Origin: Marsupella aquatica | Taxonomy: Eukaryota > Plantae > Marchantiophyta | DNA: 64,000 nucleotides | Assembly: GCA_973895155.1 (NCBI GenBank) | Contig: OZ316894.1 | Coordinates: 7,154,234-7,218,233, forward strand | Direction of reading: 5' to 3' | Shown: positions 1,046 to 59,067 of the stretch, in pieces | Numbering within the stretch: position 1 is the stretch's first letter | Layout of the letters: every line of letters starts with the position of its first letter | Program-made: the position numbers and the translations under genes | The notes under the pieces: model-generated | The model's database searches: none | The model's input: the letters and a program-made list of their open reading frames with translations, nothing else | What the model was told of the DNA's origin: nothing

Positions 1046-1047
1046 CT

Positions 1048-2300: not shown

Positions 2301-2319
2301 CTCCTATGGGCACTCCTCC

Positions 2320-38100: not shown

Positions 38101-38445
38101 TCCATAAATTGGAATCTCGGCTGTACTAGCCGAATCAGTTTCTCCCTTGGTGCCCATAGACTGTCCCCTTGCCGGCCTATTCGGTTTTGAATTGGTAGTA
38201 GGTTTTCCTTCCTGACTCGGCTCTGGATTCTCTCTGTGCATCTCATCCACCTCTTCCTCCTGAGGGTCAGGCCGCTGTGCTCTCCCGGCTTCTAATAGGG
38301 CCTCAATTTATTCTGCCCTTGTAATCGGCTTGTATGCCGATCCCTTGGTATTTAATTCCTTGCCGATGATCGATGGCGTTGTGGACCCTGTCGGCTCTGC
38401 CACAACGCCTGCAGAAAATCCATTGTCCCTGCTACTGCTCCCCAC
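35179..38445 (-). CDS. pol: Element A pol (RT-RNase H-integrase); one premature stop near 38309 upstream of RT
   Basis: WVSPIVIVPKK, DYRKLN, MPFGLCNAP, FIDD, RNase H 'VDVSG...NYSTTERE', HHCC, WGIDYIGP/SDRGTHF/NGLTE, WLGPF. Confidence 0.95.
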
Positions 38446-41347
38446 TTAGCCGTTTCATCCAATTGGTCTACATCCTTTACTTCCTCCGGAATTCCAGCTA
38501 AAAAGGTGGATTCTATTGTAAAGCAGTCCTCGACCTCTTCGTCTTCTTCTTCCAAGTCACCTTTCATTGGTTCTTGCCATAATCCGCTGGGGGGTACCTC
38601 TGGTCCAAAGACACTTTCTTCGGTTTGGTCAGCGAGGCATTCTAACCAACGTACTTCATCGGCTGACTCCAGTCCACTGTCGTACCCATCTACTTCCCTT
38701 ATGCTTTTCCTATGGTCATCCTTAGTGTCCCAGGATACCGTGATAGAGGGGGTCCCAAAAGTGAACTGCTTTTTACCCCAATCTTCTATTACCTTGGCTA
38801 GGTACAGCCATGGCCTGCCAATTAATAGCCGAAACGACGTAGGGTTTACCGGCTTCATTACTACATAGTTAATGCTAAAGAAGATACCTCCTATCTCTGT
38901 CTTAATGCCGGTTAACACCCCCGTGGGAATGACCTGATATCCATTGGCCATGTTCAATACTCTTCCAGTCATCTCCGGTGTTAGACCCCATCCTTTTGCT
39001 GTTGAATCAATCATGATACATACCCCGGATCCTCCGTCAATGGGTACCCGTAGTAATATTTCTCCTTGAATCATTAATGGTAAAGCTGGGGCTCCTTGAT
39101 CTTCTTCTATCATCAGCACGTCGGATTTGGTTGCTACCTTGGGTAATCTCGGCTTGCCAAGAATAGCCTTCCTTAATTGTTTCCGGAAGTACGGGCTATT
39201 TTTCAATAGTTGACCAACTGTTGCCGAGACTCTAGACTCTAGCACATCTTTAGCCAGGTCATAGAGAACAATCGGATTCTCCTCCGGTGGTGTTTCCTTT
39301 TGGGCTTCGGCCTATTTTGCCATGCTAGTCTCTACAGCTGTTGGATCCTCCGAAGCAAACAATGCTTTTGCTCGTTTCACATCCTTGGCTATGGCTTCGG
39401 TATTCTCCAGGGTTTCTAATTCTCTCAGTTGTTCCTTAACACTAGCCGTAACAGAGGGGTAGAACAACTTAGGATGATCTCGATTGAAGTCGCTATCTTG
39501 TGAGGGATTGGGTTCACTGGTGGGCTCATGGCTTACCTATATTGCCGGAGCCCTCCCTTCTCTTTCCGTTGATGTTGACGAAGAGTCGATCTTTTCTTCC
39601 TGGACCTTCCCTTTATTTTTGGCCAGCCCATCCCACCTTTCCTTCCTTCTGGTAGATCGAGTAGAGACCCGGTAGCAATCATGATTTAAATCCTCTTCTG
39701 AGAAGGTTGATAGGGCTTCGGCCTCATCATCAGATGGTACGAACTCTGCCTCGGCATCCTCTTGCCATCCTAGTTCGATGTGGTTGATTTGAACTCCTCC
39801 GGGGGTAGTACCTGGCAGTAAGACCTTAATTGGCAAGAGCTTATGATTTGCGGCCAGGCCTGCCACCCAAGTAGGACATTGCCCTAGCATATGACCTTCT
39901 TGTCGGCATCCCATACATAGCTGAGCTAGTTGTCCATCACCCTATTTGCGTGCATTCGGGCACTCTAGCAAAATGGCCAGGTTGACCACAGTTATAGCAT
40001 GCCGCAAATCTCTGCACATTCGGCCTAGGAGGTACTGACAGGTTCTGAATAATCCGAGGATACATCTCTCCCGGATTGTTCCTTAATCTTGACCATAGGG
40101 ATGCAGGTCTGTTGGATAGGTCTCGTGTTCCAGTCTCACTGATGCCGAAAACACTATCAGCGGCATCTCCTAAAAAGTACTCTACTTCTCCCTGAGATGG
40201 TCTGATCTCGGCCACATGCCGAACATGATTAGTATTAAGTTTAGGACACGCATCTTTATGGTGTCCGGTTTTATAACATAAGGCACACCATATAGAGCTA
40301 TCCTCCTGTACTACCTTCTTCTTCGGCTTTACTTCTGCAATTATAGCCTTAAGTTGCTCGGTAAGGGCTACGATGTTATCTGGTGGCTTAGCCTCCAGCT
40401 TGACTTTCATCTTCCCTCTCCTTCTGCCCTTCCTTTTCCTAGTTTTTTCTTCTTCAGAACTAGAAGATGACTCACTCTTGCTACTTCCACTATCCGAGCT
40501 TGAGTTATCACTTCTTGACTTCTTAGAATATTTCTTCTTCTTATCCTTTTTCTTATGGGGTGATCCTTCCTCCGATGAGGAACTCTCAGACTTAAGCTGT
40601 TTCTTCCGGCTTGTGATATCTGCATTAATATATGTATAATTGAATATCCTTAATTGCCTCGGCCAAGGTCTCCGGGTTCTCCTTCCTAATTGCAAAACTC
40701 ATCTTTTGTGGCAAAGCATTCACCAACCATTGAAGTTGCATACCTTCAGATGCATTGGTCTTTGTACGTCTTACCAGTTTCTGAAAGCGTTGCAAGAACT
40801 TCCTGAAGGATTTGTTCTCCTTGAACCGAAGTCATCCCAACTTCAGCACTGCTAGTTTTGAAGTTCCAATGGGTCAAAACTCCTTAACAAAGAGTGTTTT
40901 GAAGATATCCCAGATGGCTTGATCTTCCACATCTAATGCTCTGTACCAAGGCCTAGCCTCACCCTTGAATAGGCCGGGAAGAATCTGCATCTTGATGGCC
41001 GATTCTCCATTTGCTGCAGCGGTTCCCTCGAAATCATCCAACCATTCGTCCGGATCCTCATCTCCCTTCCCATGAAATGCCTTGTAATGAATGCCCGACC
41101 GTTGGCTCAGTCTGGTCCCTGGCCTCTCGTCTGGCCGTGCCTCTGGTTCCCCCATGTCGGTTGGAGACTCACTTCTCCTTACCGACTCTTCTTCTGGTAT
41201 GTTTTCTTCGACGCCACTTCCAGCTTCGGAGCTACCAGCTCTTTCTGCCCCTCTCAGTCGCTGTGTATCATGCCACCCGGCCAGCTGCTGCAGTCGAGCT
41301 CTCTCCCGTTGAATCACTCTTTCTTCCCTCGGCGTACGGTCAGTCAT
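38352..41347 (-). pseudogene. gag: Element A gag-protease, several stops and frameshifts
   Basis: 'FHGKGDEDPDEWLDDFE', CCHC knuckles, protease 'VPIDGGSGVCIM' and 'LLIGRPWL'. Confidence 0.92.
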
Positions 41348-41394
41348 TACCTACGTTTCCTTTCTAACTTCATATCTCACGGCTTAAGAAATGC

Positions 41395-41412
41395 CCCCTC
41401 CATCTAGCGCCA
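41395..41412 (-). promoter_or_regulatory. Element A primer-binding site, probably tRNA-Asn
   Basis: TGGCGCTAGATGGAGGGG 4 nt after the LTR; complementary with one mismatch to the plant tRNA-Asn(GUU) 3' end as I recall it (CCCCTCCTTCTAGCGCCA). Confidence 0.8.
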
Positions 41413-41416
41413 AAAA

Positions 41417-44400
41417 TGTGGTGCGTCCCATGGCTCCCTAAACCCAAGAAACCCCCCAGCTCAAGCCGATTCCCGTAGGTTTCGCGCTTGGTGAGGCCGT
41501 TTCCGCGGCTTAGCGGCATGGGACGCTGCTAACCTCCTCCTACTCTTACTATTAGCCTTTTACCCACATATACTAGACAGATCCTTCATCGGTCATGAGA
41601 TACGTAGCCGGCCTAATCTAGGCCTTCCCTTGTCTTCCTCTCCTTCTGGTTAGGTATGTTTGGATTCTGCCACCGGAATGATCCCCAATAGGCTTGGTTA
41701 AGCCGCTAAGACCTCTCTCAGCTCGACACATCCAACTCTCACTCCCTTGTTTACTTTCCTTCCTTCTGGTAGATGTGGGCACTCTTCACACAAGTTAATG
41801 CGACACACAAATAGCAAAATGACTCCTTCTGACTGAGTCATACCATGCACTTGCCATACAAATAGTACATCTCATACACAAGTTCTGCGAACTAAGCCGT
41901 GAGGCCAACTCTATTTAGCTCTTAGGCATGAGGAAACATGAATATACACAAGGTCACGGTATGACTAACCGAGAGCTTCTCTTACTACTTGATCCCATCC
42001 CGGCTGGTGCAACTAAAAACTTGCTAAAGAAGAGGCCCTGAGCTCCCTGCTGCCCAGGTACTTATCCTGGTAGTGGATCCGCCTAATTCTTTGCAGCGTA
42101 AGCCTAATCTACCTAACCGTAATCTACCTGCAGCCCGAAACTACCTATGTACAGCAAGGCAGGAGCACAAGTGTTGCTCCTACCAGTGGAACCGCAATCC
42201 CACTAAGCTAAGTGTCAGGGCCGCTCCTGGTCCTGATCCTAATCCTAAACTTGGAGATCAGCGCCCGCCCTGCCCACTCACGCCTCCTACCTCCACGTCC
42301 GCCTTTCCTAAAAGGAACGGCACCCTTGCACCGTCACGACACCGGTGGTGGATCCTCAATGGACGCCCCCAATGCTTCCTCCGCAACCACTGCCGTTGGT
42401 CCATCCTCTGACAGATTACCTGCCTCTGACCGAGTCAACTTTTCGGCATGACTGGGCCCACCCTCGGCTTCGGCATCGGCTCGGGAATCATTCTCGGCTA
42501 CGGCCTCAGCCTCGGCTTCAGCCACTGTCTCCCCGGCCTGCTCAAGAGGTGGATCTCGGATACCGGCCTCATTATTGAGTAGTCTGGCTTGGGCCGCGCC
42601 ATCCCCACCTTTGGTGATAGCGGAATCTATTGCCGTGCTCATGCCGGAGGTTGGTGTTGGGTCTACCTCCTTGGTCACCACGGCCAGTGGAGTCGTATTA
42701 CTCCTTGACCCTGAAGGTTTCCGCTTCTTCTTCTTTTCTGGTTCGGCAACTGGTCCCTTCCCCTTCCCACTTACTTCCGTCACTGGTGCAGGTGGCGCGG
42801 CTTGTTCTTCGGCCAGTACCACTCCTGGTAACTTGGTTGCCCCAATTGGAGTTGGGCCTGATGAAGACAAGCACTTAAATACTGCGGCTTGTTTCTTCAG
42901 CCGCTCTGTTTGGTTGTCGGCCCGTCGCTGTAGGTTCTCCATCTTCCTCGTGAGTTCCTCCAACTCCTCCTGGGTCTCATCCAGGTCCCTGCGCGCCTCC
43001 TCTAGTTCCTTCTAGGCTTCCTCCCGTTCCCTGTGGGCTTCCTCCAGTTCTTTCTTCAAGGTAGCCCTCTCCTCCCGTGTTGCTCTTAGCTCCTTGTCGA
43101 GCTCCGCTACGACCTTAGACTCCATGTTATTCATCTTGGCATAAGTCTGGTCGAGCTGGGCGTCCTTCTCCCGCAGGTCGGCCTTGAAGTTGGCCGTCAG
43201 GGACGCAAGCTCCTGCTGTAGCGCAATAATCCCTTGATAGGATTTCCCTAACTCGGCCTCCTTCTGCTCAAGGACTCCGCGGATTTTCTCGAGCTCCCCC
43301 TTCAATGCCCTCTCCCTTCTCTGAGTCTCCGCCGTGACCCGGTTGTTGACTGCTATATGGGCCTCTTCTGCGTTTCTCAGCTCCTTCTTCCATTTCTCCC
43401 TGTCCTTGATTGCGTCGGCCAATTCTCCCTGGGTCTGAGTCAGTTTATCCTTGATAATCTGATTATCAGCCTGCGCTGTGTCCAACTGCCCCTGTATGAT
43501 GTTCAGCTCATGCCGCTTAATCCTCAGTTCATCTTGGGCTTTCTTGGCCGCCTTTAGATCTTCAATCTCGGCTTCCATCCTCCTAAGCCGCCGGATGACC
43601 TCGTCCTTCTTGCTTCTCTCTAAAGCCACCGCTTCTTCTAATTGATTCTTCTCCAACTGCTCCCTATGGAAAAAGGGTCCTACCTCCAACTCCTCCCCAA
43701 AGATGCCGAGCGCAAGTTCCCCACACATCTCACCATACTCCATGGCTCTATTCTTAGCGTAGGTGGAGTAAGTAGAAGTGATCGGCATCGCCCATCGCGG
43801 CCTCTGCTCCCAAGCCGTCTTGCGGATCTCTTCAATCGTGGCTAGAGGTTTGCTTCCTTTTTTGGCTAGGCGCCTGATGTCCTCTGGCCAATCTCCTCCT
43901 GGCAAATCCTTTTCCCTGGCCAGGGCTGCCTTCTCTTCCTGCCTGATTCGCTCCTGAAATTCCTGCGCCGTCTGTTTTATGCCGTCAAAGCTCGGGGGAG
44001 CAACATCTGGTGGGGGAGACTCAGGGCTACTCTGCTGGTTGGGGTCCCCTCGTACTACCCTTGGAAGTGTGGGGATAAACCGGCCACAGGTCCTTACTCC
44101 TGGAACGTGATGGTCCGACCCATAGCCGGAGTTATCATGGCTGCAGTCCTCCACTGCCTCCTCTACTTCTTGGACTTCCGGCTTCTCCCTCTCTTCTTCG
44201 TCGGTAGGAGCTTCAGACAATTCTACCTCAGATTCAGAGCTTGAGACTCCCACGTACATTCGAACACCCGGCTTGGATTCTGGCCTGATTCTGCTGAGGT
44301 TGACCTCTGGGGCAGTGTCCTGCATTGTTGCCGTTGCCGTTGTCGTTGCCGATGCCGATCTCTTCTCTTTCTCCAGTAGTTTCAGCAGATTCTGCATGCC

Positions 44401-44808
44401 TAGTTGCTGCATCGGCAAGTCCTCCATCCTTGGCCTAAACACCTGCTCGATCGTAGGGCTAATAGGTGGTTGAGGCTTCTCTACTACCGGCCTCGGTGCT
44501 GGGGCTTCCTCGGGTGCCCTTACCTGCAGGGGAAGTACTGGGGCAAAGGTCTGACCTCTGGCATACCGGCACAACAGCGGCATGTGATAGCCAAGCCGCG
44601 ACACGCTCCCCATGCCGATTACCTGCTGCTCCTCCTTTAAGATCTTCTTCAATTGGTTGAGGAGGTACCCATTGTACGTAGTCCCGGCTTGGGTCTGGCC
44701 TCTCTGCCAGATAGACCTGTGCCTTGCCGATCTCTGCCCTCGGCAAGTTACAATGCATGGTCACCCGCAAGAAGTTGATCATCTCTCCTATGTGCAGGTT
44801 GGTGCAGG
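41417..44808 (-). repeat. Element A 5' LTR, left part, with a disrupted LTR-ORF copy (42334-44808)
   Basis: Near identical to 30568-33954; resumes at 58376 after element B. Confidence 0.93.
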
Positions 44809-47800
44809 TGTGGTGCGTCCCATGGCTCCCTAAACCCAAGAAACCCCCCAGCTCAAGCCGATTCCCGCAGGTTTCGTGCTTGGCGAGGCCGTTTCCGCGG
44901 CTTAGCGGCATGGGACGCTGCTAACCTTCTACTACTACTATTAATATTTTACACACATATACTGGATAGATCCTTCATCGGGTCATGAGATACGTAGCCG
45001 GCCTAATATAGGCCTTCCCCTGTCTTCCCCTCCGTCTTGTTAGGTATGTTTGGATTCCGCCGCCGGAATGATCCCCAATAGGCTTGGTTAAGCCGCTAAG
45101 ACCTCTCTCAGCTCGACACATCCAACTCTCACTCCCCTGCTTACTTTCCTTCCTTCTGTTGATGTGGGCACTCTTCACACAAGTTAATGCGACACACAAA
45201 TAGCAAAATGACTCATTCTGACTGAGTCATACCATGCACTTGCCATACAAACAGTACATCTCATACACAAGTTCTGCGAACTAAGCCGTGAGGCCAACTC
45301 TATTCAGCTCTTAGGCATGAGGAAACATGAATATACACGAGGGTCACTGTATGACTAACCGAGAGCTTCTCGTACTACTTGATCCCAGCCCGGCTGGTGC
45401 AAACTAAAAACTTGCTAAAGAAGAGGCCCTGAGCTCCCCGCTACCCAGGTACTTATCCTGGTAGTGGATCCGCCATTCTTTGCATCGTAAGCCTAATCTA
45501 CCTGACAGTAATCTACTTGCCCGAATCTACCTATGTACAGCAAGGCAGGAGCTCAAGTGTTGCCCCTACCAGTGGAACCGCAATCCCACTAAGCTAAGTG
45601 TCAGGGCCGCTCCTGGTCCTGATCCTAATCCTAAACTTGGAGATCCGTGCCCGCCCTGCCCACTCACGCCTCCTCCCTCCACGTCCGCCCTCCCTAAAAG
45701 GAACGGCGCCCTTGCACCGTCACGACACCGGTGGTGGATCCTCAATGGACGCCCCCAACACTTCCTCCTCAGCCACTGCCGTTGGCCCGCCTACTGACAG
45801 ATTACCTGCCCTTGACCGAGTCAACTCTCCATCGGCCTGACTGGGTCCACCTTCGGCTTCAGCCTTGACACCGGCCTCGGCAATACCCACGGCTTCGGCC
45901 TCAGCCACTCCCACGGCTTCGGCCTCCCCTTCCCCTAGGGTAGTTGGATCCTTAGCCGTGACCCTGTCTGGGGTCGGTGTTGGGTCTACCTCCTTGATCA
46001 CCACGGCCTGTGAAGTCGTATTACTCCTTGACCCTGAAGGTTTCCGCTTCTTCTTCGTTGGTGGCTCGGCAGCTGGTCCCTTCCCCTTCCCACTTACTTC
46101 CGGCACTGGTGCAGGTGGCGCGGCTTGTCCTTCGGCAATTACCACCCCTGGTAACTGGTTTGTCCCAACGGGAGATGGACCTGCTGCAGCTAAGCATTTA
46201 AATACTGCGGCTTGTTTCTTCAGCCGCTCTGTTTGGTTGTCGGCCCGCCGCTGTAGGTTCTCCATCTTCCTCGTGATTTCCTCCAACTCCTCTTGGGTTT
46301 CATCCAGGTCCTTACGTGCCCCCTCCAGCTCATTTTTGGCCTCCTCCTGCTCCCTGTGGGCTTCCTCCAATTCCTTCTTCAAGGTAGCCCTCTCCTCCTG
46401 GGTTGCTCTTAGCTCCTTGTCGAGCTCTGCAATGATGACAGACTCCATCTGGTTCATCTTGGCGTAAGTCTGTTCGAGCATCTCGTCCTTCTCCCTTAGG
46501 TCGGCCTTGAAGCTGGCCGTCAGGGACGCAAGCTCCTGCTGCAGCGCCATAATCCCTTGATAGGATTTCCCTAACTCGACCTCCTTCTGCTCAAGGGCTC
46601 CGCGGATTTTCTCGAGCTCCCCTTTCAACGCCCATTCCTTTCTTTGGGTCTCCGCCATGGCCCGACTGTTGGCTGTTATGTGGGCCTCCTCTGTATTCTT
46701 CAGCTCTTGCTTCCACTTCTCCCTCTCTTTGATCGTGTCGGCCAACTCTTCCTGCGTCTGAGTCAGTTTATCCTTAATATTCTGATTATCAGCCTGCGCG
46801 GTGTCCAACTGCCCCTGCATGATGTTCAGCTCATGTCGTTTAATCCGCAGTTCATCTTGGGCTTTCTTGGCCGCCCTTAGATCTTCAATCTCGGCTTCCA
46901 TCCTCCTAAGCCGCCGAATGACCTCGTCCTTCTTGCTTCTCTCTAAAGCCACCGCTTCTTCTAATTGGTGTTTCTCCAACTGCTCCCAATGGAAAAAGGG
47001 TCCTACCTCCAACTCCTCTCCAAAGATGCCGAGCGCAAGTTCCCCACACATCTCACCATACTCCATGGCTCTATTCTTAGCGTAGGTGGAGTAAGTAGAA
47101 GTGATCGGCATCGCCCATCGTGGCCTCTGCTCCCAAGCCGTCCTGCGGATCTCTTCAATCGTGGCTAGAGGTTTGCTTCCTTTTTCGGCTAGCCGCCTGA
47201 TGTCCTCCGGCCAATCTCCTCCTGGTAAATCCTTTTCCTTAGCCAGGGCGGCCTCTTCCTCCTGCTTGATTCGCTCCTGAAATTCCTGCACCGTCTGTTT
47301 TATGCCGTCGAAGCTCGGGGGAGCAACATCTGGTGGGGGAGACTCAGGGCTACTCTGCTGGTTGGGGTCCCCTCGCACTACCCTTGGAAGTGTGGGGACA
47401 AACCGGCCACAGGTCCTTACTCCTGGAACGTGATGGTCCGACCCATAGCCGGAATTATCATGGCTGCAGTCCTCCACTGCCTCCTCTACCTCTTGGACGT
47501 CCGGCTTCTCCCTCTCCTCTTCGTCGGTAGGAGCTTCAGGCAATTCTGCCTCAGATTCGGAGCTTGAGGTTCCCACGTACATTCGAACACCTGGCTTGGA
47601 TTCCGGCCTGATTCTCTCCTTGTCTCCAGCAAAGGGGTTTTCTCTTGTGAGCCAGTGTAGGCCTACCTCTGTAGTAGTGTCCTGCATTGTTGCCGTTGCC
47701 GTTGTTGTTGCCGATGCCGATTTCTTTTCTTTCTCCAGTAGTTTCAGCAGACTCTGCATGCCTGGTTGCTGCATCGGCAAGTCTTCCTTCCTGGGCCTAA

Positions 47801-49434
47801 ACACCTGCTCGATCGTAGGACTAACAGGTGGTTGAGGCTTCTCAGCCAACGGCCTCGGTGTTGGAGCTTCCTCGGGTGCCCTTACCTGCAGGGGAAGTAC
47901 CGGGGCAAAAGTCTTACCTCTGGCATACCGGCACAACAGCGGCATGTGATAGCCAAGCCGCGACACGCTCCCCATGCCGATTACCTGCTGCTCCTCCTTT
48001 AAGATCTTCTTCAATTGGTTGAGGAGGTACCCGTTGTAGTCCCGGCTTGGGTCTGGCCTTTCTGCCAGATAGACCTGTGCCTTGCCGATCTCTGCCCGCG
48101 GCAAGTTACAATGCATGGTCACCCGCAAGAAGTCGATCATCTCTCCTATGTGCGGGTTGGTGCAGGTGTTCCGGAAGAAGCCATTCTTCGTTGATGGCCC
48201 GGGGAACGACCGGAACTCCTTGTCAGGCAAGGTCTTCCTGGTATCAACTTTGGTCTTATTGCCTATCGGCAGGCCAAACACTTCGGCAATTACCTTGGGA
48301 GTAAGATAGAAATCCCTCCCATATATCCTCGTGCAATTGGTCTCGGGTTCCCATGACCCCACGAATTCTAATAGGTCTGACTCCGGTACCTCCGGCTTCA
48401 GCCATGGTAATCTTACAAAGGCCTCCAAGCCGGATCCGGCCATGAAGCCTTGGTACTTCTTGGTCTGCATGGCCGTAAAGCATGCATCCTCCTCCCGTGC
48501 AAAATGTAGTTGCACCTCCACCGGTAGGGTTGCCGCCCAGCCCTTCCAGGTGTCATCCCTGGTTGGAATGGCCTTGATGGGATCGACCTCCTCCTCTTCG
48601 GCTTCTCCCTGCCTCCTGCTCTGCTGCTCGGCTGGCCTCTTTGGTGCCGCCGACCTCGTTCTTTTTGCCGGGGTGGCTTCATCATTGATGGCTCCCTTCC
48701 TCTTCATCTCTGCTGCCGTGGAGGTTTCTCCTAGCACCGTTGCCTGGGTCCACCTTTCCGTGCTACCCTTTAATTCCCAGTGTATGTCGTTGCAGTTCTT
48801 GATGGCCTCTCGGATGCCGACGACGCTGTCTTTGCAAAACAGAAGATCGTCGAGTTGATTGGAAGTAGGCGTCCACAGGAACTCGTCCTTGATGAGTTTG
48901 CCTCCTAAGAAAGCCGTCTTCTGCAGCTCCCACAATCGAGCGAGCTCCTGCCGTTCTCGAGCTGCCCTTTCTGACTCCTCGTCCTCGTAAGTCTTGATGT
49001 ACTCAGTTGCCCGTTCGAATAGGCATCCCCAGAAATGTGCCGCTTGATTGACGTTGCTCATACCCTCCTTAGGTCGATCGTCGGTATCTACTCTCTCCCC
49101 GAGTGCTTGCCTAAGCAGCTGACAGTAGTTGGCCTCCCGTAGTCGTCTGCCTAGTTCGTGCTCGCAAATGAGCCACCATCTCCTGCAAGCGCTCCTTACC
49201 CCTCTCCTCTGCCGGTCCTTCTTCCCGTTGATCCTTCCTAGCCGCCGACGCTTAACGCGCCCTAACCCTAATCGGGTTTTCACCCTTAGCCTTACCTCCG
49301 GCCTCGGCCCGGGTTCCATGGTTGCCCCTAATTGTTTATATTTTCCTTGTTTTGTCCCTATACTAAGGTGTTCCTAGGGTGCCTTCCTGCTTTACCCACT
49401 TAACCGGCCGAGTGATTCCTGTCTAGGCATCACA
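44809..49434 (-). repeat. Element B 3' LTR, 4626 bp
   Basis: PPT at 49435-49447; TSD at the left edge; matches 55660-58370 apart from a deletion. Confidence 0.95.
45720..49319 (-). CDS. Intact 1199-aa extra ORF wholly inside the LTR: basic N-terminus, plant-mobile-domain-like motif, acidic/Pro linker, long coiled coil, NLS-like KKKRK
   Basis: Open frame with ACCATGG start 115 nt inside the LTR; 'LLEFVGSWEPETNCTRIYGRDFYLTPKVIAEVFGLPIG' resembles the PMD W-x-PET...T-x-x-x-V...GLPI motif; E/K/L heptad region ~46200-46990. Confidence 0.9.
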   Translation of the reverse strand: MEPGPRPEVRLRVKTRLGLGRVKRRRLGRINGKKDRQRRGVRSACRRWWLICEHELGRRLREANYCQLLRQALGERVDTDDRPKEGMSNVNQAAHFWGCLFERATEYIKTYEDEESERAARERQELARLWELQKTAFLGGKLIKDEFLWTPTSNQLDDLLFCKDSVVGIREAIKNCNDIHWELKGSTERWTQATVLGETSTAAEMKRKGAINDEATPAKRTRSAAPKRPAEQQSRRQGEAEEEEVDPIKAIPTRDDTWKGWAATLPVEVQLHFAREEDACFTAMQTKKYQGFMAGSGLEAFVRLPWLKPEVPESDLLEFVGSWEPETNCTRIYGRDFYLTPKVIAEVFGLPIGNKTKVDTRKTLPDKEFRSFPGPSTKNGFFRNTCTNPHIGEMIDFLRVTMHCNLPRAEIGKAQVYLAERPDPSRDYNGYLLNQLKKILKEEQQVIGMGSVSRLGYHMPLLCRYARGKTFAPVLPLQVRAPEEAPTPRPLAEKPQPPVSPTIEQVFRPRKEDLPMQQPGMQSLLKLLEKEKKSASATTTATATMQDTTTEVGLHWLTRENPFAGDKERIRPESKPGVRMYVGTSSSESEAELPEAPTDEEEREKPDVQEVEEAVEDCSHDNSGYGSDHHVPGVRTCGRFVPTLPRVVRGDPNQQSSPESPPPDVAPPSFDGIKQTVQEFQERIKQEEEAALAKEKDLPGGDWPEDIRRLAEKGSKPLATIEEIRRTAWEQRPRWAMPITSTYSTYAKNRAMEYGEMCGELALGIFGEELEVGPFFHWEQLEKHQLEEAVALERSKKDEVIRRLRRMEAEIEDLRAAKKAQDELRIKRHELNIMQGQLDTAQADNQNIKDKLTQTQEELADTIKEREKWKQELKNTEEAHITANSRAMAETQRKEWALKGELEKIRGALEQKEVELGKSYQGIMALQQELASLTASFKADLREKDEMLEQTYAKMNQMESVIIAELDKELRATQEERATLKKELEEAHREQEEAKNELEGARKDLDETQEELEEITRKMENLQRRADNQTERLKKQAAVFKCLAAAGPSPVGTNQLPGVVIAEGQAAPPAPVPEVSGKGKGPAAEPPTKKKRKPSGSRSNTTSQAVVIKEVDPTPTPDRVTAKDPTTLGEGEAEAVGVAEAEAVGIAEAGVKAEAEGGPSQADGELTRSRAGNLSVGGPTAVAEEEVLGASIEDPPPVS

Positions 49435-52400
49435 TAGCTCCCCACTTAATTGTGAAGCGTCCTCGCGAACAACTTCATCTTCGTCCATATAGTATTTCTT
49501 GAGGCGGTCATAATGGATGCGAACTGGATATACCTCTCCCGTAATGTTGGCCAATTGTACGGAGCCATTGGGGAACATCATGGTTACTCTAAAGGGTCCT
49601 AACCAGCGAGTGTAAAGCTTTCCTGGAAACCTACTATACCTACTGTCATAAAGTAGCACAAGATCACCGGTATGAATACTAACTACTTTTAACTTTTTAT
49701 CATACTGCTGCTTCATGATATTCTGTCTATATTCTACTCTCTCGGCTGAAATCATTCTCGCTTCCTCTAAAGCTTCTAACCTATATTCTCGCTCCTTTAG
49801 GCTCTCCTCCGCTGAGGCTCTTTCCTCAATTATAACTTGAAATGTCGGTATCTCAAGTTGCATGGGTACTAGGGCTTCTTGTCCAAAGGTTAAGAAGAAG
49901 GGTGTATGACCGGTAGTGGATTTATAGGCAAGATTGTAAGCAAAAATAGCAGCAAACCATTTATCATCCCAATCGAGTTTGTTCTGAGCTACTGTCTTGT
50001 TCAATATCTTTCCTATGATTCCGTTTGCTCGTTCTGTCAACCCGTTTGCCTTTGGATGGTAGGGAGTAGTAGGCCTATGTTTAACTAAATACTGCTCATT
50101 TAAACGACTAATTATATCATTCAAAAAATGGGTTCCTCTATCACTAACTAATTCTAGGGGTGCTCCATACCTGGTGAAGATCTGCTCATACATGAATCTA
50201 GCCGTAGTAATTGCATCATCCTTCGTTGTTGGTCTGGCCTCTACCCATTTAGTTGCATAATCCGTAGCCAGGATTATGTACTTGTTCCGTCGAGGGTGGG
50301 TCAGTGGTTTCAGAGGTCCAATGTAATCAATACCCCACTTCTCGAATGGTGCCAGAGGTAGAATAGGGTGCAGTGGATGCCTGGTGGACGCCCTTGGTCC
50401 TCCCGCTCGTTGACAAGGATCGCATTGTCTGATAAACTGATAGACATCTTTGTGCAAGGTGGGCCACCAGTAACCGGCATTTAATATCTTCTTAGACGTG
50501 GTTACTGGGGCAAAATGTCCTCCGGCCTCCTCTCCATGCATGGCCCGTAGGACTCGTTTTACCTCTCTCTTTTCCAAACATCTTTGAATCGTGCCGTTGA
50601 TTCCATGCTTGTGCAGTATGCCTTTAATGCACTGATACTGTCTGACCTTCTGCACAAAGACTGCGGCTTGCTCTCGGCTTAATCCTGGCTGTAATCTGGA
50701 AGTGCTGAGAAATTGTAAAATCTCAGGGTACCATGTACCAGCTATTTCCACAACGAATAGCTCCTCGTCGGGGAATCGATCATCGATGCAATCCGTGGCA
50801 GGTTTACCTGTGATCCTTGAAAAGAAGTCGGCATTGGCATGTAACTTTCCCGGCTTGATCCTTAGCTCATAGTCAAACTCCTGTAATAGCAAAATCCATC
50901 TTGCTACTCTGCCTGTAAGGTCCGGCTTATTGACTAGGTACTTCAAACTTTCATGATCAGTATGAAAGATTACCTTGTACCCTAGTAAATAATGCCTAAA
51001 CTTTTTACAAGAATAAATGACTCCTAATGCTTCTCTTTCCGTGGTAGAGTAGTTCCGTTCGGCATCGGCAAGCTGACGGCTTGCGAAGTATATGGGATGG
51101 TCCCTTCCTTTCTCATCCAACTGACTTAGTACTGAGCCAATACAGAAGCCCGAGACATCTACAAAAACATGAAAATCTTTGTTCCAGTCCGGTGCTATCA
51201 TGACTGGGGCCTCTACTAACATCTGCTTCAATTCTACCACCGCTGTGACTCGTTCGGGTGTGGGTTCGAAGTCTGCTCCTGCCTTGAGCATATTGGTTAA
51301 TGGTAAAGCCAGCTTGGCAAAATCCTTGATGAACCGGCGATAGTAACCAATGCATCCCAAGAAGGATCTTACATCCTTTATGTTCTTAGGTTGCATGATA
51401 TCTAGCCATACTGCTAGCTTACCTTTGTCAATCTCAATGCCCTTCCTTGATACCTTGTGGCCTAGTAGCACCCCCTCGGTTACTGCAAAAAAACATTTAT
51501 CTGGGTGTAACTTGAGACCCACCTCTCTACATCTCATGAAGGTTTTCCTGAGGTATTTAGCATGTTTCGATGCCTTCCCGAATACTGCAAAGTCATCAAT
51601 GAAGATTTCCATGAACTTTCTCAAGTAATCATGAAAAATGTTCACCATTAATCGTTGGAACATAGCTGGTGCGTTGCAGAGTCCAAACGGCATACGATTG
51701 AAGACATAGATCCCCCATTCCGTGATGAAGGCCGTCTTGATTTGGTCTTCCTGCCGAATCCTGATTTGGTTATAACCAGAGTATCCATCCATGAATGAAT
51801 ATAGTTCATGACTGGCTACCATGTCTAGTACCATATCAGTAAACGGTAAAGGAAAATGGTCTTTTAATGTTGCTTCATTCAGCTTCCTGTAATCCTGACA
51901 AACCCGGATCTTGGGTTTACCATCGGGTCCAGCTTTCTTGGGAACTATCACAATTGGAGACACCCAGTCTGAATGCAGGACTGGAGTGATGAATCCAGCT
52001 TCCACTAGTTTGTCGATTTCTGTTTTGACCAGCAGGGAATACTTCGGGTTCATCCTTCGAATTGGTTGTCGAAATGATTTGGCTCCTAACATGAGATCAA
52101 TTCGATGTTCCCCTAGTGTTGGATCTACTCCCTTTTGATCTTGGTGACTCCATGCAAACACATCCTGAAATTCAATCAATAAATCACTGATCTCTTTCTC
52201 GAGCTCAGGTGCTAGGTTTCTCCCTAAGTTCAGTTCTCTTCCCTCTCCTAAGTCGAGCTTCCGATATTGCCGTGCTTGGATCATATTAATCTGCTTCTTC
52301 AAATTCGGGTCCAGTTCGACTTCCAGTCTCTCTAATCTCATACCTCCATAAACTGGGATCTCGGCTGGACTAGCCGAGTCGGTCCCTTCCTTGGTGTCCA

Positions 52401-52689
52401 TAGATTGTCCCCTTACCGGTCTATTCGGTTTTGAATTAGTGGTCGGCTCTCCTTCCTGCCTTGGCTCTAGATCGTGTCTGTCCATCTCATCCACCTCTTG
52501 CTCCTGAGAGTTAGGCCGCTGTGCTCTCTCGGCTTCTAATAGGGCCTCAATTTGTTCTGCCCTCGTAATCGGCTTGTATGCCGATCCCTTGGTATTTAAT
52601 TCCTTGCCGATGATCGATGGCGTTGTGGACCCCGTCGGCTCTGCCACAACGCCTACAGAAAATCCACTGTCCCTGCTACTGCTCCCCAC
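49423..52689 (-). CDS. pol: Element B pol (RT-RNase H-integrase), intact frame, ending 12 nt inside the 3' LTR
   Basis: Same motifs as element A; no stops over 1088 codons; frame opens just upstream of a slippery site. Confidence 0.96.
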   Translation of the reverse strand: MGSSSRDSGFSVGVVAEPTGSTTPSIIGKELNTKGSAYKPITRAEQIEALLEAERAQRPNSQEQEVDEMDRHDLEPRQEGEPTTNSKPNRPVRGQSMDTKEGTDSASPAEIPVYGGMRLERLEVELDPNLKKQINMIQARQYRKLDLGEGRELNLGRNLAPELEKEISDLLIEFQDVFAWSHQDQKGVDPTLGEHRIDLMLGAKSFRQPIRRMNPKYSLLVKTEIDKLVEAGFITPVLHSDWVSPIVIVPKKAGPDGKPKIRVCQDYRKLNEATLKDHFPLPFTDMVLDMVASHELYSFMDGYSGYNQIRIRQEDQIKTAFITEWGIYVFNRMPFGLCNAPAMFQRLMVNIFHDYLRKFMEIFIDDFAVFGKASKHAKYLRKTFMRCREVGLKLHPDKCFFAVTEGVLLGHKVSRKGIEIDKGKLAVWLDIMQPKNIKDVRSFLGCIGYYRRFIKDFAKLALPLTNMLKAGADFEPTPERVTAVVELKQMLVEAPVMIAPDWNKDFHVFVDVSGFCIGSVLSQLDEKGRDHPIYFASRQLADAERNYSTTEREALGVIYSCKKFRHYLLGYKVIFHTDHESLKYLVNKPDLTGRVARWILLLQEFDYELRIKPGKLHANADFFSRITGKPATDCIDDRFPDEELFVVEIAGTWYPEILQFLSTSRLQPGLSREQAAVFVQKVRQYQCIKGILHKHGINGTIQRCLEKREVKRVLRAMHGEEAGGHFAPVTTSKKILNAGYWWPTLHKDVYQFIRQCDPCQRAGGPRASTRHPLHPILPLAPFEKWGIDYIGPLKPLTHPRRNKYIILATDYATKWVEARPTTKDDAITTARFMYEQIFTRYGAPLELVSDRGTHFLNDIISRLNEQYLVKHRPTTPYHPKANGLTERANGIIGKILNKTVAQNKLDWDDKWFAAIFAYNLAYKSTTGHTPFFLTFGQEALVPMQLEIPTFQVIIEERASAEESLKEREYRLEALEEARMISAERVEYRQNIMKQQYDKKLKVVSIHTGDLVLLYDSRYSRFPGKLYTRWLGPFRVTMMFPNGSVQLANITGEVYPVRIHYDRLKKYYMDEDEVVREDASQLSGELCDA
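52606..52665 (-). promoter_or_regulatory. Predicted programmed -1 ribosomal frameshift signal; the equivalent in A is at 38362-38421
   Basis: G GAU UUU in the PR frame, 5-nt spacer, 10-bp stem GGCGUUGUGG/CCACAACGCC, loop GCCGA pairing with downstream UCGGC; pol is -1 relative to gag-PR in both elements. Confidence 0.8.
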
Positions 52690-55590
52690 TTAGCCGTTTC
52701 ATCCAATTGGTCTACATCCTTTACTTCCTCCGGAATTGCAGCTAAAAAGGTGGATTCTATTGTAAAGCAGTCCTCGACCTCTTCGTCTTCTTCTTCCAAG
52801 TCACCTTCCATTGGTTCTTGCCATAATTCGCTGGGGGGTACCTCTGGTCCAAAGACACCTTCTTCGGTTAGGTTAGTGAGGCATTCTAACCAACGTACTT
52901 CATCGGCTGACTCCAGTCCACTGTCGTACCCATCTACTTCCCTTATGCTTTTCCTACGGTCATCCTTAGTGTCCCAGGATACCGTGATAGAGGGGGTCCC
53001 GAAAGTGAACTGCTTTTTACCCCAATCTTCTATTACCTCGGCTAGGTACAGCCATGGCCTACCAATCAATAGCTGGAATGACGTAGGATTTACCGGCTTC
53101 ATTACTACATAGTTAATGCTAAAGAAGATACCTCCTATCTCTGTCTTGATGCCGGTTAACACTCCCGTCGGAATGACCTGATATCCATTGGCCATGTTCA
53201 ACACTCTTCCAGTCATCTCCGGTGTTAGACCCCACCCTTTTGCTGTTGAATCAATCATAATACATACCCCTGATCCTCCATCGATGGGTACCCGTAGTAA
53301 TAATTCTCCTTGAATCATTAATGGTAATGCTGGGGCTCCTTGATCTTCTTCTATCATTAGTACGTTGGATCTGGTTGCTACCTTGGGTAATCTCGGCTTG
53401 CCGAGAATAGCCTTCCTTAATTGCTTCCGGAAGTACGGGCTATTTTTCAATAGTTGACCTACTGTTGCCGAGACTCTAGATTCTAGTACATCTTTAGCCA
53501 GGTCATAGGGAACAATCGGCTTCTCTTCTGGTGGTGTTTCCGTCTTGGATTCGGCCAGTTTTGCTATGCTAGTCTCCACAGCTGTTGGGTCTTCCGAAGC
53601 AAACAATGCTTTTGCTCGTTTTACATCCTTGGCAATGGCTTCGGTATTCTCCAGGGTTTCTAATTCTCTTAGTTGTTCCTTAACACTAGCCGTAACAGAG
53701 GGGTAGAACAACTTAGGATGATCTCGATTGAAGTCGCTATCTTGTGAAGGATTGGTTTCACTGGTGGGCTCATGGCTTACCTGTATTGCCGGAGCCCTCC
53801 CTTCTCCTTCTGTTGATGTTGACGAAGAGTCGATCCTTTCCTCCGTAACCTTCCCTTTATTTTTGGCCAGCCCATCCCACCTTTCCTTCCTTCTGGTAGA
53901 TCGAGTAGAGACCCGGTAGCAATCATGATCTAAATCCTCCTCTGAGAAGGTTGATAGGGCTTCGGCCTCATCATCAGATGGTACGAACTCTGCCTCGGCA
54001 TCCTCTTGCCATCCTAGTTCGATGTGGTTGATTTGAACTCCTCCGGGGGTAGTACCTGGCGGTAAGATCTTGATCGGCAAAAGCTTATGATTTGCGGCCA
54101 GGCCTGCCAACCAAGTAGGACATTGCCCTAGCATATGACCTTCCTGTCGGCATCCCATACATAGCTGAGCTGGTTGTCCATCACCCTGTTTGCGTGCATT
54201 CGGGCATTCTCTAGCAAAATGGCCAGGTTGACCACAATTATAGCACGCCGCAAATCTTTGCACATTCGGCCTAGGAGGTACTGACGGGTTCTGAATAATC
54301 CGAGGATACATCTCTCCTGGATTGTTCCTTAACCCTGACCACAGAGATGCAGGTCTGTTGGATAGGTCTCGTGCTCCAGTCTCACTGATGCCGAAAACAC
54401 TATCAGCGGCATCTCCCAAAAAGTACTCTACTTCTCCGTGACATGGTCTGATCTCGGCCACATGCCGAACATGATTAGTATTAAGCTTAGGACACGCATC
54501 TTTATGGTGTCCGGTTTTATAACATAAGGCACACCATACAGAGCTATCCTCCTGTACTACCTTCTTCTTTGGTTTTACCTCTGCAATGATAGCCTTAAGT
54601 TGCTCGGTAAGGGCTACGATGTTATCTGGTGGCTTAGCCTCCATCTTGACTTTCGTCTTCCCTCTCCTTCTGCCCTTCCTTTTCCTAGTTTTCTTCTTCT
54701 TCAGAACTAGAAGATGACTCACTCTTGCTACTTCCACTATCCGAGCTTGACTTATCACTTCTAGACTTCTTGGAATGTTTCTTCTTCTTATCTTTTTTCT
54801 TATGGGGTGATCCCTCCTCTGATGAGGAACTCTCAGACTTAAGCTGTTTCTTCCGGCTTGTGATATCTGCATTAATGTATAATTGAATATCCTTAATTGC
54901 TTCGGCTAAAGTCTCCGGGTTCTCCTTCCTAATTGCAAAACTCATCTTCTGTGGCAAAGCATTCACCAACCATTGAAGTTGCATACCTTCAGATGCATTG
55001 GTCTTTGTACGTCTTACCAGTTTCTGAAAGCGTTGCAAGAACTTCCTGAAGGATTTGTTCTCCTTGAACCGAAGTTGTCCCAACTTCAGCACTGCTAGTT
55101 CTGAAGTTCCAATGGGTCGAAACTCCTTAACAAAGAGTGTTTTGAAGATATCCTAGATGGCTTGATCTTCCACATCTAATGCTCTGTACCAAGGCCTAGC
55201 CTCACCCTTGAACAGGCCGGGAAGAATCTGCATCTTGATGGCCGATTCTCCATTTGCTGCAGCGGTTCCCTCGAAATCATCCAACCATTCGTCCGGATCC
55301 TCATCTCCTCTCCCATGAAATGCCTTGTAATGTATGCGCAACCGCTGGCTCAATCTGGTCCCTGGCCTCTCGTCTGGCCGTGCCTCTGGTTCCCCCATGT
55401 CGGTTGGAGACTCACTTCTCCTTACCGACTCTTCTTCTGGTATGTCTTCTTCGACGCCACTTCCAGTTTCGGAGCTACCAGCTCTTTCTGCCCCTCTCAG
55501 TCGCTGTGTATCATGCCACCCGGCGAGCTGCTGCAGTCGAGCTCTCTCCCATCGAATCACTCTTTCTTCCCTCGGCATAAGGTCAGTCAT
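52653..55590 (-). pseudogene. gag: Element B gag-protease (three CCHC knuckles); one TGG>TAG stop at 55153 and a 1-nt frameshift near 54690
   Basis: CALCYKTGHHKDAC, CYNCGQPGHFAREC, CMGCRQEGHMLGQC; IDGGS protease motif; lesions defined by comparison with A. Confidence 0.93.
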
Positions 55591-55637
55591 TACCTACGCT
55601 TCCGTTCTAACTTCATATCTCACGGCTTAAGAAATGC

Positions 55638-55655
55638 CCCCTCCATCTAGCGCCA
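55638..55655 (-). promoter_or_regulatory. Element B primer-binding site, probably tRNA-Asn
   Basis: TGGCGCTAGATGGAGGGG, identical to A. Confidence 0.8.
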
Positions 55656-55659
55656 AAAA

Positions 55660-58370
55660 TGTGGTGCGTCCCATGGCTCCCTAAACCCAAGAAACCCCCC
55701 AGCTCAAGCCGATTCCCGCAGGTTTCGTGCTTGGCGAGGCCGTTTCCGCGGCTTAGCGGCATGGGACGCTGCTAACCTTCTACTACTACTATTAATATTT
55801 TACACACATATACTGGATAGATCCTTCATCGGGTCATGAGATACGTAGCCGGCCTAATATAGGCCTTCCCCTGTCTTCCCCTCCGTCTTGTTAGGTATGT
55901 TTGGATTCCGCCGCCGGAATGATCCCCAATAGGCTTGGTTAAGCCGCTAAGACCTCTCTCAGCTCGACACATCCAACTCTCACTCCCCTGCTTACTTTCC
56001 TTCCTTCTGTTGATGTGGGCACTCTTCACACAAGTTAATGCGACACACAAATAGCAAAATGACTCATTCTGACTGAGTCATACCATGCACTTGCCATACA
56101 AACAGTACATCTCATACACAAGTTCTGCGAACTAAGCCGTGAGGCCAACTCTATTCAGCTCTTAGGCATGAGGAAACATGAATATACACAAGGGTCACTG
56201 TATGACTAACCGAGAGCTTCTCGTACTACTTGATCCCAGCCCGGCTGGTGCAAACTAAAAACTTGCTAAAGAAGAGGCCCTGAGCTCCCCGCTGCCCAGG
56301 TACTTATCCTGGTAGTGGATCCGCCATTCTTTGCATCGTAAGCCTAATCTACCTGACAGTAATCTACTTGCCCGAATCTACCTATGTACAGCAAGGCAGG
56401 AGCTCAAGTGTTGCCCCTACCAGTGGAACCGCAATCCCACTAAGCTAAGTGTCAGGGCCGCTCCTGGTCCTGATCCTAATCCTAAACTTGGAGATCCGTG
56501 CCCGCCCTACCCACTCACGCCTCCTCCCTCCACGTCCGCCCTCCCTAAAAGGAACGGCGCCCTTGCACCGTCACGACACCGGTGGTGGATCCTCAATGGA
56601 CGCCCCCAACACTTCCTCCTCAGCCACTGCCGTTGGCCCGCCTACTGACAGATTACCTGCCCTTGACCGAGTCAACTCTCCATCGGCCTGACTGGGTCCA
56701 CCTTCGGCTTCAGCCTTGACACCGGCCTCGGCAATACCCACGGCTTCGGCCTCAGCCACTCCCACGGCTTCGGCTTCAGCCACTCCCTCGGCTTCGGCCT
56801 CCCCTTCCCCTAGGGTAGTTGGATCCTTAGCCGTGACCCTGTCTGGGGTCGGTGCTGGGTCTACCGGCACAACAGCGGCATGTGATAGCCAAGCCGCGAC
56901 ACGCTCCCCATGCCGATTACCTGCTGCTCCTCCTTTAAGATCTTCTTCAATTGGTTGAGGAGGTACCCGTTGTAGTCCCGGCTTGGGTCTGGCCTTTCTG
57001 CCAGATAGACCTGTGCCTTGCCGATCTCTGCCCGCGGCAAGTTACAATGCATGGTCACCCGCAAGAAGTCGATCATCTCTCCTATGTGCGGGTTGGTGCA
57101 GGTGTTCCGGAAGAAGCCATTCTTCGTTGATGGCCCGGGGAACGACCGGAACTCCTTGTCAGGCAAGGTCTTCCTGGTATCAACTTTGGTCTTATTGCCT
57201 ATCGGCAGGCCAAACACTTCGGCAATTACCTTGGGAGTAAGATAGAAATCCCTCCCATATATCCTCGTGCAATTGGTCTCGGGTTCCCATGACCCCACGA
57301 ATTCTAATAGGTCTGACTCCGGTACCTCCGGCTTCAGCCATGGTAATCTTACAAAGGCCTCCAAGCCGGATCCGGCCATGAAGCCTTGGTACTTCTTGGT
57401 CTGCATGGCCGTAAAGCATGCATCCTCCTCCCGTGCAAAATGTAGTTGCACCTCCACCGGTAGGGTTGCCGCCCAGCCCTTCCAGGTGTCATCCCTGGTT
57501 GGAATGGCCTTGATGGGATCGACCTCCTCCTCTTCGGCTTCTCCCTGCCTCCTGCTCTGCTGCTCGGCTGGCCTCTTTGGTGCCGCCGACCTCGTTCTTT
57601 TTGCCGGGGTGGCTTCATCGTTGATGGCTCCCTTCCTCTTCATCTCTGCTGCCGTGGAGGTTTCTCCTAGCACCGTTGCCTGGGTCCACCTTTCCGTGCT
57701 ACCCTTTAATTCCCAGTGTATGTCGTTGCAGTTCTTGATGGCCTCTCGGATGCCGACGACGCTATCTTTGCAAAACAGAAGATCGTCGAGTTGATTGGAA
57801 GTAGGCGTCCACAGGAACTCGTCCTTGATGAGTTTGCCTCCTAAGAAAGCTGTATTCTGCAGCTCCCACAATCGAGCGAGCTCCTGCCGTTCTCGAGCTG
57901 CCCTTTCTGACTCCTCATCCTCGTAAGTCTTGATGTACTCAGTTGCCCGTTCGAACAGGCATCCCCAGAAATGTGCCGCTTGATTGACGTTGCTCATACC
58001 CTCCTTAGGTCGATCGTCGGTATCTACTCTCTCCCCGAGTGCTTGCCTAAGCAGCTGACAGTAGTTGGCCTCCCGTAGTCGTCTGCCTAGTTCGTGCTCG
58101 CAAATGAGCCACCATCTCCTGCAAGCGCTCCTTACCCCTCTCCTCTGCCGGTCCTTCTTCCCGTTGATCCTTCCTAGCCGCCGACGCTTAACGCGCCCTA
58201 ACCCTAATCGGGTTTTCACCCTTAGCCTTACCTCCGGCCTCGGCCCGGGTTCCATGGTTGCCCCTAATTGTTTATATTTTCCTTGTTTTGTCCCTATACT
58301 AAGGTGTTCCTAGGGTGCCTTCCTGCTTTACCCACTTAACCGGCCGAGTGATTCCTGTCTAGGCATCACA
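55660..58370 (-). repeat. Element B 5' LTR, 2711 bp, with a ~1939-bp internal deletion truncating the LTR ORF (56861-58255)
   Basis: Junction at ~56865 on TACC microhomology joins the equivalents of ~45990 and ~47930; one extra 24-bp unit near 56770. Confidence 0.95.
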
Positions 58371-59067
58371 GCAGGTGTTCCGGAAGAAGCCATTCTTCGT
58401 TGATGGCCCGGGGAACGACCGGAACTCCTTGTCAGGCAAGGTCTTCCTGGTATCAACTTTGGTCTTATTACCTATCGGCAAGCCAAACACTTCGGCAATC
58501 ACCTTGGGAGTAAGATAGAAATCCTTCCCATATATCCTCGTGCAATTGGTCTGAATCCGGTACCTCCGGCTTCAGCCATGGTAATCAGTCTTGAAATGTA
58601 CACTTTTATGTCCCCAAATGTACACTTTTTGATACCTAAATGTACACTTTATAGGCCAAATCTTATTAGTATTATATTAATATATTATATTATATTATAT
58701 TATATTATATTAATTATAATAGTATTATATTACTTATTAGTTCACAAAGAACCATGGGATAGAGATCATACTTGTAAAAACATTTCCGCACAAAGAAGCC
58801 CAGGCAAGGACCATTGATTGATAATGTGTGAAAATAATTATATACAATTGTGTCCAAACTTACAATGAATATCCAGGGCTGGCACCCATTTTACTATCTA
58901 ATGGGCTTAACATGAGTCAGATCTCTAAACAAAGTGCTTCTTACAATATTTATTTGAGCACGTGCCTTTGTCTCCTTTACTATCTACCCTAATGTCACGG
59001 TTGCAACTCCCTTTATCTTCAGGGAGATGAAATTTGGTGGTGTTGTTCCTAACTGCTATAATCTCCC

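Follow-up and report, generated by a model that had tools for sequence, protein, structure and literature searches.

Self-comparison and open reading frame (ORF) lists of a 64,000-bp stretch of Marsupella aquatica DNA (contig OZ316894.1, positions 7,154,234–7,218,233; hereafter the window) revealed two nested copies, E1 and E2, of one Ty3/gypsy retrotransposon family, both on the minus strand. The 3′ long terminal repeat (LTR) of E1 encloses an intact ORF of 1,199 codons that, judged by its substitution pattern, is a protein gene under selection, and its location inside the LTR is almost certainly a trait of the family. The LTRs, their borders and the enclosed gene are located as follows (window coordinates).

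44804–44808, no strand: left target site duplication (TSD), GCAGG
44809–49434, minus strand: E1 3′ LTR, 4,626 bp, with the terminal inverted match TGTGATGC / TGTGGTGC
44809–45719, minus strand: non-coding LTR tail, 911 bp
45720–49319, minus strand: LTR-borne ORF, 1,199 aa, intact, LTR positions 116–3715
49435–49470, minus strand: working polypurine tract (PPT) with an upstream GAGGAC hairpin, overlapping the last pol codons
55638–55659, minus strand: primer binding site (PBS), starting TGGCGCTAG after a short T run
55660–58370, minus strand: E1 5′ LTR, 2,711 bp, with a 1,939-bp deletion
58371–58375, no strand: right TSD, GCAGG
30568–35190, minus strand: E2 3′ LTR, full length, ORF broken
35191–41416, minus strand: E2 internal region, 95.3% identity to E1, pol open and gag broken
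41417–44808, minus strand: downstream part of the E2 5′ LTR, with E1 inserted at 44808
58376–58586: further piece of the E2 5′ LTR beyond E1, cut off at 58586

E1 (44809–58370, 13,562 bp) is bracketed by the GCAGG duplications, and its flanks join without a gap in the uninterrupted host LTR (33930–33975). The direct repeats (44809–49434 and 55660–58370) have TGTG/CACA ends, with the purine tract adjoining position 49434 and the PBS adjoining position 55660, and in E2 the PPT and PBS lie at the same LTR edges. In the direction of the element, E1 consists of the 5′ LTR (58370 to 55660), PBS, gag-protease, reverse transcriptase–RNase H–integrase (RT-RH-INT), PPT and 3′ LTR (49434 to 44809). An initial annotation of this DNA had fixed the LTR limits by the TSD, the TGTG/CACA ends, the PPT and the PBS, all of which were found adjoining the long repeats; its placement of the ORF wholly inside the LTR also holds, as the ORF runs from 49319 to 45720. 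Making the strand explicit identifies 44809–49434 as the 3′ (PPT-side) LTR. The LTR into which E1 inserted belongs to the same family, and joints between contigs in one sequencing run (X2; 49434–45998, 47371–44809 and 45652–44808) suggest more self-nesting, although they may merely reflect high copy number.

The LTR-borne ORF starts 103 nt past the pol stop codon. In 200 simulated LTRs, the longest open frame averaged 173 codons and reached at most 285, compared with 1,199 here. The encoded protein is charged along its whole length and comprises a basic N-terminus, a conserved domain (residues ~250–470), an acidic, proline-rich linker and a long coiled-coil-like region (~790–1040), with stretches resembling nuclear localization signals at residues 23, 219 and 1086. 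No membrane helix was found in it, the best 19-residue Kyte–Doolittle mean being 0.98. The ratio of nonsynonymous to synonymous divergence (dN/dS) against the copy in the E2 3′ LTR was 0.31 (bootstrap 0.24–0.39; 1,159 codons), an estimate that, like those below, comes from the single pair of lineages E1 and E2. By segment, it was 0.21 in residues 271–470, 0.16 in residues 691–790, 0.19 in the coil and 0.64 in the low-complexity end; the values for pol and gag-protease were 0.15 and 0.19. Between E1 and E2 the 911-bp tail diverged by 0.044–0.049, as against 0.18 at silent sites of the ORF, which fits the expectation for a cis-acting part. The predicted poly(A) and promoter signals are, respectively, a TGTA-rich stretch near 45270–45180 (6.6 per kb; ORF part, 0.8) and a word resembling a TATA box near 45012, and no 6–9-mers were over-represented in the tail relative to 300 shuffles. 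Silent divergence along the ORF (45720–49319 versus 30568–35190) ranges from 0.04 to 0.34, which suggests recombination between subfamilies. Contigs in runs X1 (nine, sharing one sequence) and X8 differ over the last ORF codons (45707–45738) and represent a subfamily with another C-terminal end, not an insertion edge. Thirty-eight read variants within the ORF (17 silent, 21 replacement), hand-picked from partial tables, were not used as evidence.

The claim in the initial annotation that all four LTRs carry a copy of the gene stands for its remains, which are present in all four, but only one of the four is intact. The E1 5′ LTR lacks LTR positions 1506–3444 (1,939 bp), and its ORF stops at 464 aa. 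The join carries a 4-bp microhomology, and deletion through this microhomology is the preferred explanation of the gap; a reading as splicing (GT..AG) was rejected because a spliced template would delete the segment from both LTRs and the 3′ end has no pyrimidine tract. The copy in the E2 3′ LTR contains five stop codons and frameshifts, and that in the E2 5′ LTR, interrupted by E1 and cut off at 58586, is also broken. A 4-bp insertion at codon 428 and a stop at codon 995 occur in the two E2 LTRs alike. This indicates that E2 was inserted from a template with the gene already broken, that the LTR region was copied into both ends from this one template and that the element can do without the gene in cis. 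Within each pair, the LTRs diverge at 10 of 2,687 aligned sites in E1 (0.37%) and at 31 of 3,386 in E2 (0.92%), an order that agrees with the nesting. All nine transitions in the E1 pair and 21 of 26 in the E2 pair lie in CG or CHG contexts (12 CG, 9 CHG and 5 CHH in E2), a pattern that reads as a plant-type methylation signature and so indicates a host among plants. These differences and their context rule out a duplication during assembly, a case that the initial annotation had raised against itself.

Words of the LTR occur in 14 of 16 listed sequencing runs, six of which contain at least half of them. Eight runs were mapped, all as contigs. The median depth of the ORF relative to the gag side was 3.6 in X1, 3.8 in X2, 3.0 in X3 and 5.0 in X6, and that of the tail relative to the ORF was 0.93, 1.34, 1.42 and 0.74, respectively; the gag side served as the baseline because the RT-INT bins of X3 and X6 were swamped by other families, and summed depth does not equal copy number. 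In X1 and X2, the lowest ORF depth bin exceeded the highest bin of the internal region. One contig each in X6 and X8 matches exactly up to 49434 and then runs on into other DNA; a joint at this position also occurs in X2. The family-level placement in the initial annotation is borne out by these data, as the gene lies in the LTR not just in E1 and, given the insertion and stop shared by the E2 LTRs, was copied into both ends. Members bounded at the 0.9-kb non-coding part, which that annotation had set against its own claim, were absent among the loose ends listed, themselves a partial set. The depth excess over two is a mere hint of solo LTRs. On the other side, no contig in any mapped run spans the element, and a short-LTR variant could exist beside the long-LTR form.

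The 6,225-bp internal region of E1 is all gag-pol and contains the following features.

49423–52689, minus strand: pol frame (RT-RH-INT), with an ATG-initiated ORF of 1,020 aa from 52485 to 49423
52620–52665, minus strand: predicted −1 frameshift signal between protease and RT, with a slippery heptamer, 5-nt spacer and strong stem
52653–55593, minus strand: gag-protease region, broken in E1 near 55155 (stop) and near 54700–54900 (frame break)

The protease was located by a motif in the gag-protease frame and by BLAST to relatives. The pol frame stays open across the PPT and terminates within the LTR, 12 nt from its edge (stop at 49425–49423). In X7 and X11, the 40 bases at 49431–49470 were very deep, with varied flanks on both sides, which indicates that the hairpin–PPT module is common to other abundant families and is a genuine PPT. 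The PBS presumably matches tRNA-Asn; no tRNA gene was found in the window, and Rfam gave no matches over 44700–59000. The predicted frameshift stem (−22.5 kcal/mol over 60 nt) belongs to a signal that is kept in E2 at 38421 (minus strand), and the protease–RT junction is an unusual frameshift site for a plant Ty3 element.

The order GAG-PR-RT-RH-INT between LTRs, with PBS, PPT and TSD, is that of Ty3/gypsy. A Pfam scan found no chromodomain and pol ends at the PPT, so the family is not a chromovirus; no additional archaeal-type RNase H (aRH) was found, which sets it apart from aRH-bearing Tat (TatI–III, Ogre, Retand), and the 5-bp TSD sets it apart from Phygy and Selgy (4-bp TSD). The lack of an extra RNase H and the 5-bp TSD agree with Athila, as would a tRNA-Asn PBS (Athila elements use tRNA-Asp, -Asn or -Ala), but pol overlaps the PPT, and the extra ORF and long non-coding region that Athila has between pol and the 3′ LTR are missing. 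The break between protease and RT is Ogre/Retand-like, here as a predicted −1 frameshift kept in both copies. These lineage definitions (extra RNase H, TSD length, PBS) follow the available part of PMC6317226, and aRH-less Tat lineages are known in non-seed plants according to the available part of PMC13468544. The E1/E2 family is treated here as a non-chromovirus without lineage placement.

The gene very probably has the same origin as a domain found behind integrase in related elements, and within it the homologous segment is as follows.

47895–48575, minus strand: conserved ORF domain, remote homologue of the relatives' post-integrase domain, with a putative Transposase_32/plant mobile domain (PMD)/VANC-type fold

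The initial annotation had called it the family's accessory gene; most likely it is the post-integrase accessory domain usual in the lineage rather than a cargo of unrelated origin. Searching metagenome contigs with pol yielded 42 loci, among which L001 has the closest RT (55% identity over 216 aa). L001 (765–9743) is an apparently complete element with an intact single frame of 2,992 aa, in which gag-PR-RT-RH-INT is followed by ~930 extra residues; these hold the conserved domain and a coiled coil, and a PPT and a 623-bp LTR lie behind them. In L005 the domain lies 2.2 kb before the PPT, and the LTR is 0.5 kb. Iterated profiles placed the post-integrase domain in 26 of the 42 loci, in 24 of them on the pol strand and downstream of the pol match; many of the 42 loci repeat one family, and several of the 16 domain-less loci hold little DNA behind pol. 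L019 and L020 have the domain on the opposite strand. Conserved and unnamed in Pfam, the domain occurs in most related bryophyte-type elements (26 loci, L003–L041).

No Pfam match was found for the ORF itself, and three word-index protein searches gave no match among 421 candidates of similar length (residues 250–480), 5,205 shorter ones (residues 60–480) and 6,479 longer ones (two-sequence alignment). Exact look-up found none of six window proteins in the searched collection, viral contigs gave no match in 2 and 87 candidate stretches, and the sequence search of the PDB gave nothing meaningful, with no match to VANC21. A HMMER search of 1.84 billion proteins with an ORF/L001 alignment returned 20 hits, of which five were near the ORF (best 41% over residues 248–471), 12 near L001 and three between. 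The ORF-type and L001-type groups align with a probability of 80% (E = 1.5e-5). An L001-type profile alone found bridging proteins (P0013, liverwort, E = 7e-20) and missed the ORF; with the bridges added, it found the ORF at 20.3 bits versus 6.1 for the best of 500 shuffles. These results suggest that the ORF domain is likely a remote homologue of the relatives' domain. The top fold match, a weak one, was VANC21 (PDB 9LNK), a DNA-bound anti-silencing protein, and a PMD/VANC-type fold is somewhat favoured; a first model from two sequences was set aside (predicted local distance difference test score of 36). Several results weigh against the homology or the fold: the bridging proteins were picked using the window sequence, profiles from broken loci alone failed to reach the ORF, and the whole ORF protein was not significantly similar to the L001 tail (20 of 300 local shuffles scored as high; BLAST E = 0.01). 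Similarly, Foldseek gave no match at E = 0.001 against the PDB and BFVD, and the ORF homologues scored 12–17 bits for Transposase_32, ATHILA ORF-1, PMD and DUF1985, where the Pfam cut-off is 45.

The relatives show the order integrase, domain, PPT and short LTR, and E1 and E2 the order integrase, PPT, gene and 0.9-kb tail. We moderately favour an overall reading in which a non-chromovirus Ty3/gypsy element carries an LTR-enclosed post-integrase accessory gene for a nuclear, DNA-binding, coiled-coil anti-silencing factor. The LTR edge would have moved upstream of this gene and enclosed it; plus-strand synthesis would be primed at the hairpin–PPT module overlapping the pol end, so that everything downstream, the gene included, becomes LTR. 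Genomic RNA would start in the conserved 0.9-kb tail and would still read gag-pol-gene, as in Athila-type elements, and the gene is quite probably in U3 rather than in R/U5. Synthesis of the protein would depend on a sub-genomic RNA, produced by splicing or from a separate promoter located near the start of the LTR or within the end of pol, and the protein would act in trans on family copies, so that an intact gene would not be required in every copy. An anti-silencing role of the Transposase_32/PMD/VANC type is proposed tentatively. The polarity of this change is read from relatives without a rooted tree and from the fact that such genes are, as a rule, described as internal. A further feature may bear on it.

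45681–45721, minus strand: possible relic hairpin and purine-tract module directly behind the ORF stop, weak and post hoc

This candidate has a hairpin, T run and purine tract spaced like those of the working module and, of all LTR positions, matches that module most closely without gaps (19/35); the pattern also turned up in simulated LTRs (10 of 300) and in local shuffles (3 of 3,000). Its standing is lowered by the fact that the pattern was set after the site had been seen and does not fit the working module itself; moreover, a 19/35 match occurs elsewhere by chance, and the modules of two relatives do not select the site. The odds that it is a relic PPT are about even. If it is, the old LTR would have measured ~875 bp before a second priming module, at the pol end, lengthened it.

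On a different account, the true LTR would be 0.9 kb long, and the long repeat around it would be a chimera, an assembly artefact or the product of local duplication. This account draws on the PPT-like module behind the ORF stop, the unequal lengths of the two E1 repeats and the missing element-spanning contig. It is highly improbable, given that TSD, PPT and PBS adjoin the long repeats in E1 and PPT and PBS do so in E2, that the paired LTRs differ by methylation-type transitions and that other runs show the depth step and junction contigs at 49434. Another possibility, which we regard as unlikely, concerns transcription: the LTR could be a self-contained unit in which the gene is transcribed from a promoter within the first 115 bp, which would place the gene in R/U5 (or behind a second U3 promoter) and let every LTR, solo ones too, make its own mRNA. 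The TATAAA found at LTR position 95 and the favourable context of the ATG would suit this, but the TATA is so near that, with the established TATA-to-start spacing, transcription would start at or past the first ATG. The TGTA-rich stretch past the stop resembles a 3′ untranslated region, and in mouse mammary tumour virus (MMTV) extra U3 promoters serve sag (PMC12789967, available part); against this, a 4.5-kb R/U5 would presumably demand very long minus strong-stop DNA, and the conserved non-coding part is the tail, not the head.

The function of the protein admits other readings as well. It may possibly be a structural or targeting accessory, acting in the particle, in nuclear import or in tethering to integration sites via the coil, instead of an anti-silencing factor. 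Fusion of domain and coil to integrase in the 2,992-aa frame of L001 is as for an integration co-factor, and a part in nuclear steps has been suggested for aORF proteins that have SMC-like coils and localize to the nucleus (PMC7264820); the lack of target-motif arrays in the 911-bp tail also speaks for this role. On the other hand, its occurrence as a separate ORF, already broken in both E2 LTRs at insertion, fits trans action, and the sole fold lead is a DNA-bound anti-silencing protein. An env-like membrane protein would share the same-strand place behind pol with the env-like ORFs of Athila and Bagy2 (PMC7264820), but the protein is highly charged and has neither a hydrophobic helix nor a signal peptide-like start, which makes this very unlikely.

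The sag gene of MMTV encodes a protein of about 320 aa. In the available part of PMC12789967, the whole sag ORF lies in U3, and HIV-1 nef only partly; as here, sag is complete between PPT and LTR end, is present in both LTRs and is doubled at each integration, but it encodes a retroviral membrane superantigen without homology to our gene, and its U3 is mapped, whereas ours is inferred. The sense 3′ extra ORFs of Athila-type elements (eORF-3′F; ATHILA ORF-1 PF03078 / Transposase_32 PF20167; PMC6317226, PMC7264820 and PMC11728184, available parts) are similar in being separate ORFs behind pol of non-chromoviruses without an extra RNase H, with a coiled coil, a 5-bp TSD and a weakly related domain group. 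There, however, the ORF lies between pol and the 3′ LTR, whereas here the PPT precedes the gene and places it in the LTR; the present protein also has no membrane helix and counts 1,199 aa versus 487 aa for the sunflower Athila ORF. The bryophyte-type relatives (L001, L005, L025 and liverwort P0013) share the remote domain homologue followed by a coiled coil, but theirs is fused to pol or internal, before the PPT, and their LTRs are 0.5–0.6 kb with TGTTAAC/TTAACA ends and another PBS. VANC21 of the Mutator-like transposon VANDAL21 (PDB 9LNK; PMC5735166) and plant mobile domain proteins are linked by the weak fold match; VANC21 is also transposon-encoded, with a globular domain, a coiled coil and plausible trans action, but belongs to a dicot DNA transposon and binds short motifs in tandem arrays, none of which was found in the 911-bp tail. 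Cassandra elements (terminal-repeat retrotransposons in miniature; PMC10946416, available part) are plant elements with gene-derived sequence, 5S rDNA, in both LTRs, but this is non-coding and acts as a promoter, and the elements are short and non-autonomous. Retrosat2/RIRE3 (ORF0) and Ogre (PMC3485330 and PMC6317226, available parts) combine 3–5 kb LTRs with an extra ORF that lies upstream of gag-pol or 3′ internal, not in the LTR.

LTRs of up to ~5 kb are known (PMC6317226, available part), and accounts of plant Ty3 elements place their extra ORFs in the internal region (PMC7264820; PMC6317226, available part). A narrow phrase-matching search of open full-text literature found no precedent for an ORF inside a retrotransposon LTR; in the available parts of PMC6673714 and PMC1560396, 'ORFs within the LTRs' or 'gene within the LTR' refers to the whole element. 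The novelty lies in where the LTR edge falls and in how large the gene is, not in the kind of gene. This family, a plant element that has been successful and active recently, shows that an LTR can include a 3.6-kb gene and that the LTR edge can cross a gene. A solo LTR thereby takes on another meaning in genomes of this kind, and both annotation and counts of solo LTRs can be misled. The family also opens a direct test for the function of the 'env-like' extra ORFs of plant Ty3 elements, with a member that is intact, soluble and under selection and whose fold lead is VANC-like. A bolder reading, which we consider rather improbable, is that a VANC-like anti-silencing gene has moved into the LTR, just upstream of the promoter it protects, with solo LTRs as free-standing trans-acting genes. 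If so, every insertion would double an anti-silencing gene, solo LTRs might outnumber full elements ~2:1, provided that the fourfold depth step reflects copy number, and LTR–LTR recombination by the host, the usual removal route, would keep the counter-defence gene.

Elsewhere in the window, the abrupt end of the E2 5′ LTR adjoins short direct repeats and a run rich in AT (58587–59724). ORFs of 190–416 aa without a clear Pfam match lie at 3040–4290 and 61337–61924 (minus strand) and at 2213–2923, 23151–23741 and 27845–28420 (plus strand). Tandem repeat arrays unrelated to the element occur at 17586–19413, 62600–62992, 2318–2585 and 23980–24284. Beyond the end of the E2 5′ LTR, a 218-aa ORF matches a NIF-like phosphatase (PF03031, E = 2.5e-6) and perhaps belongs to another mobile element.

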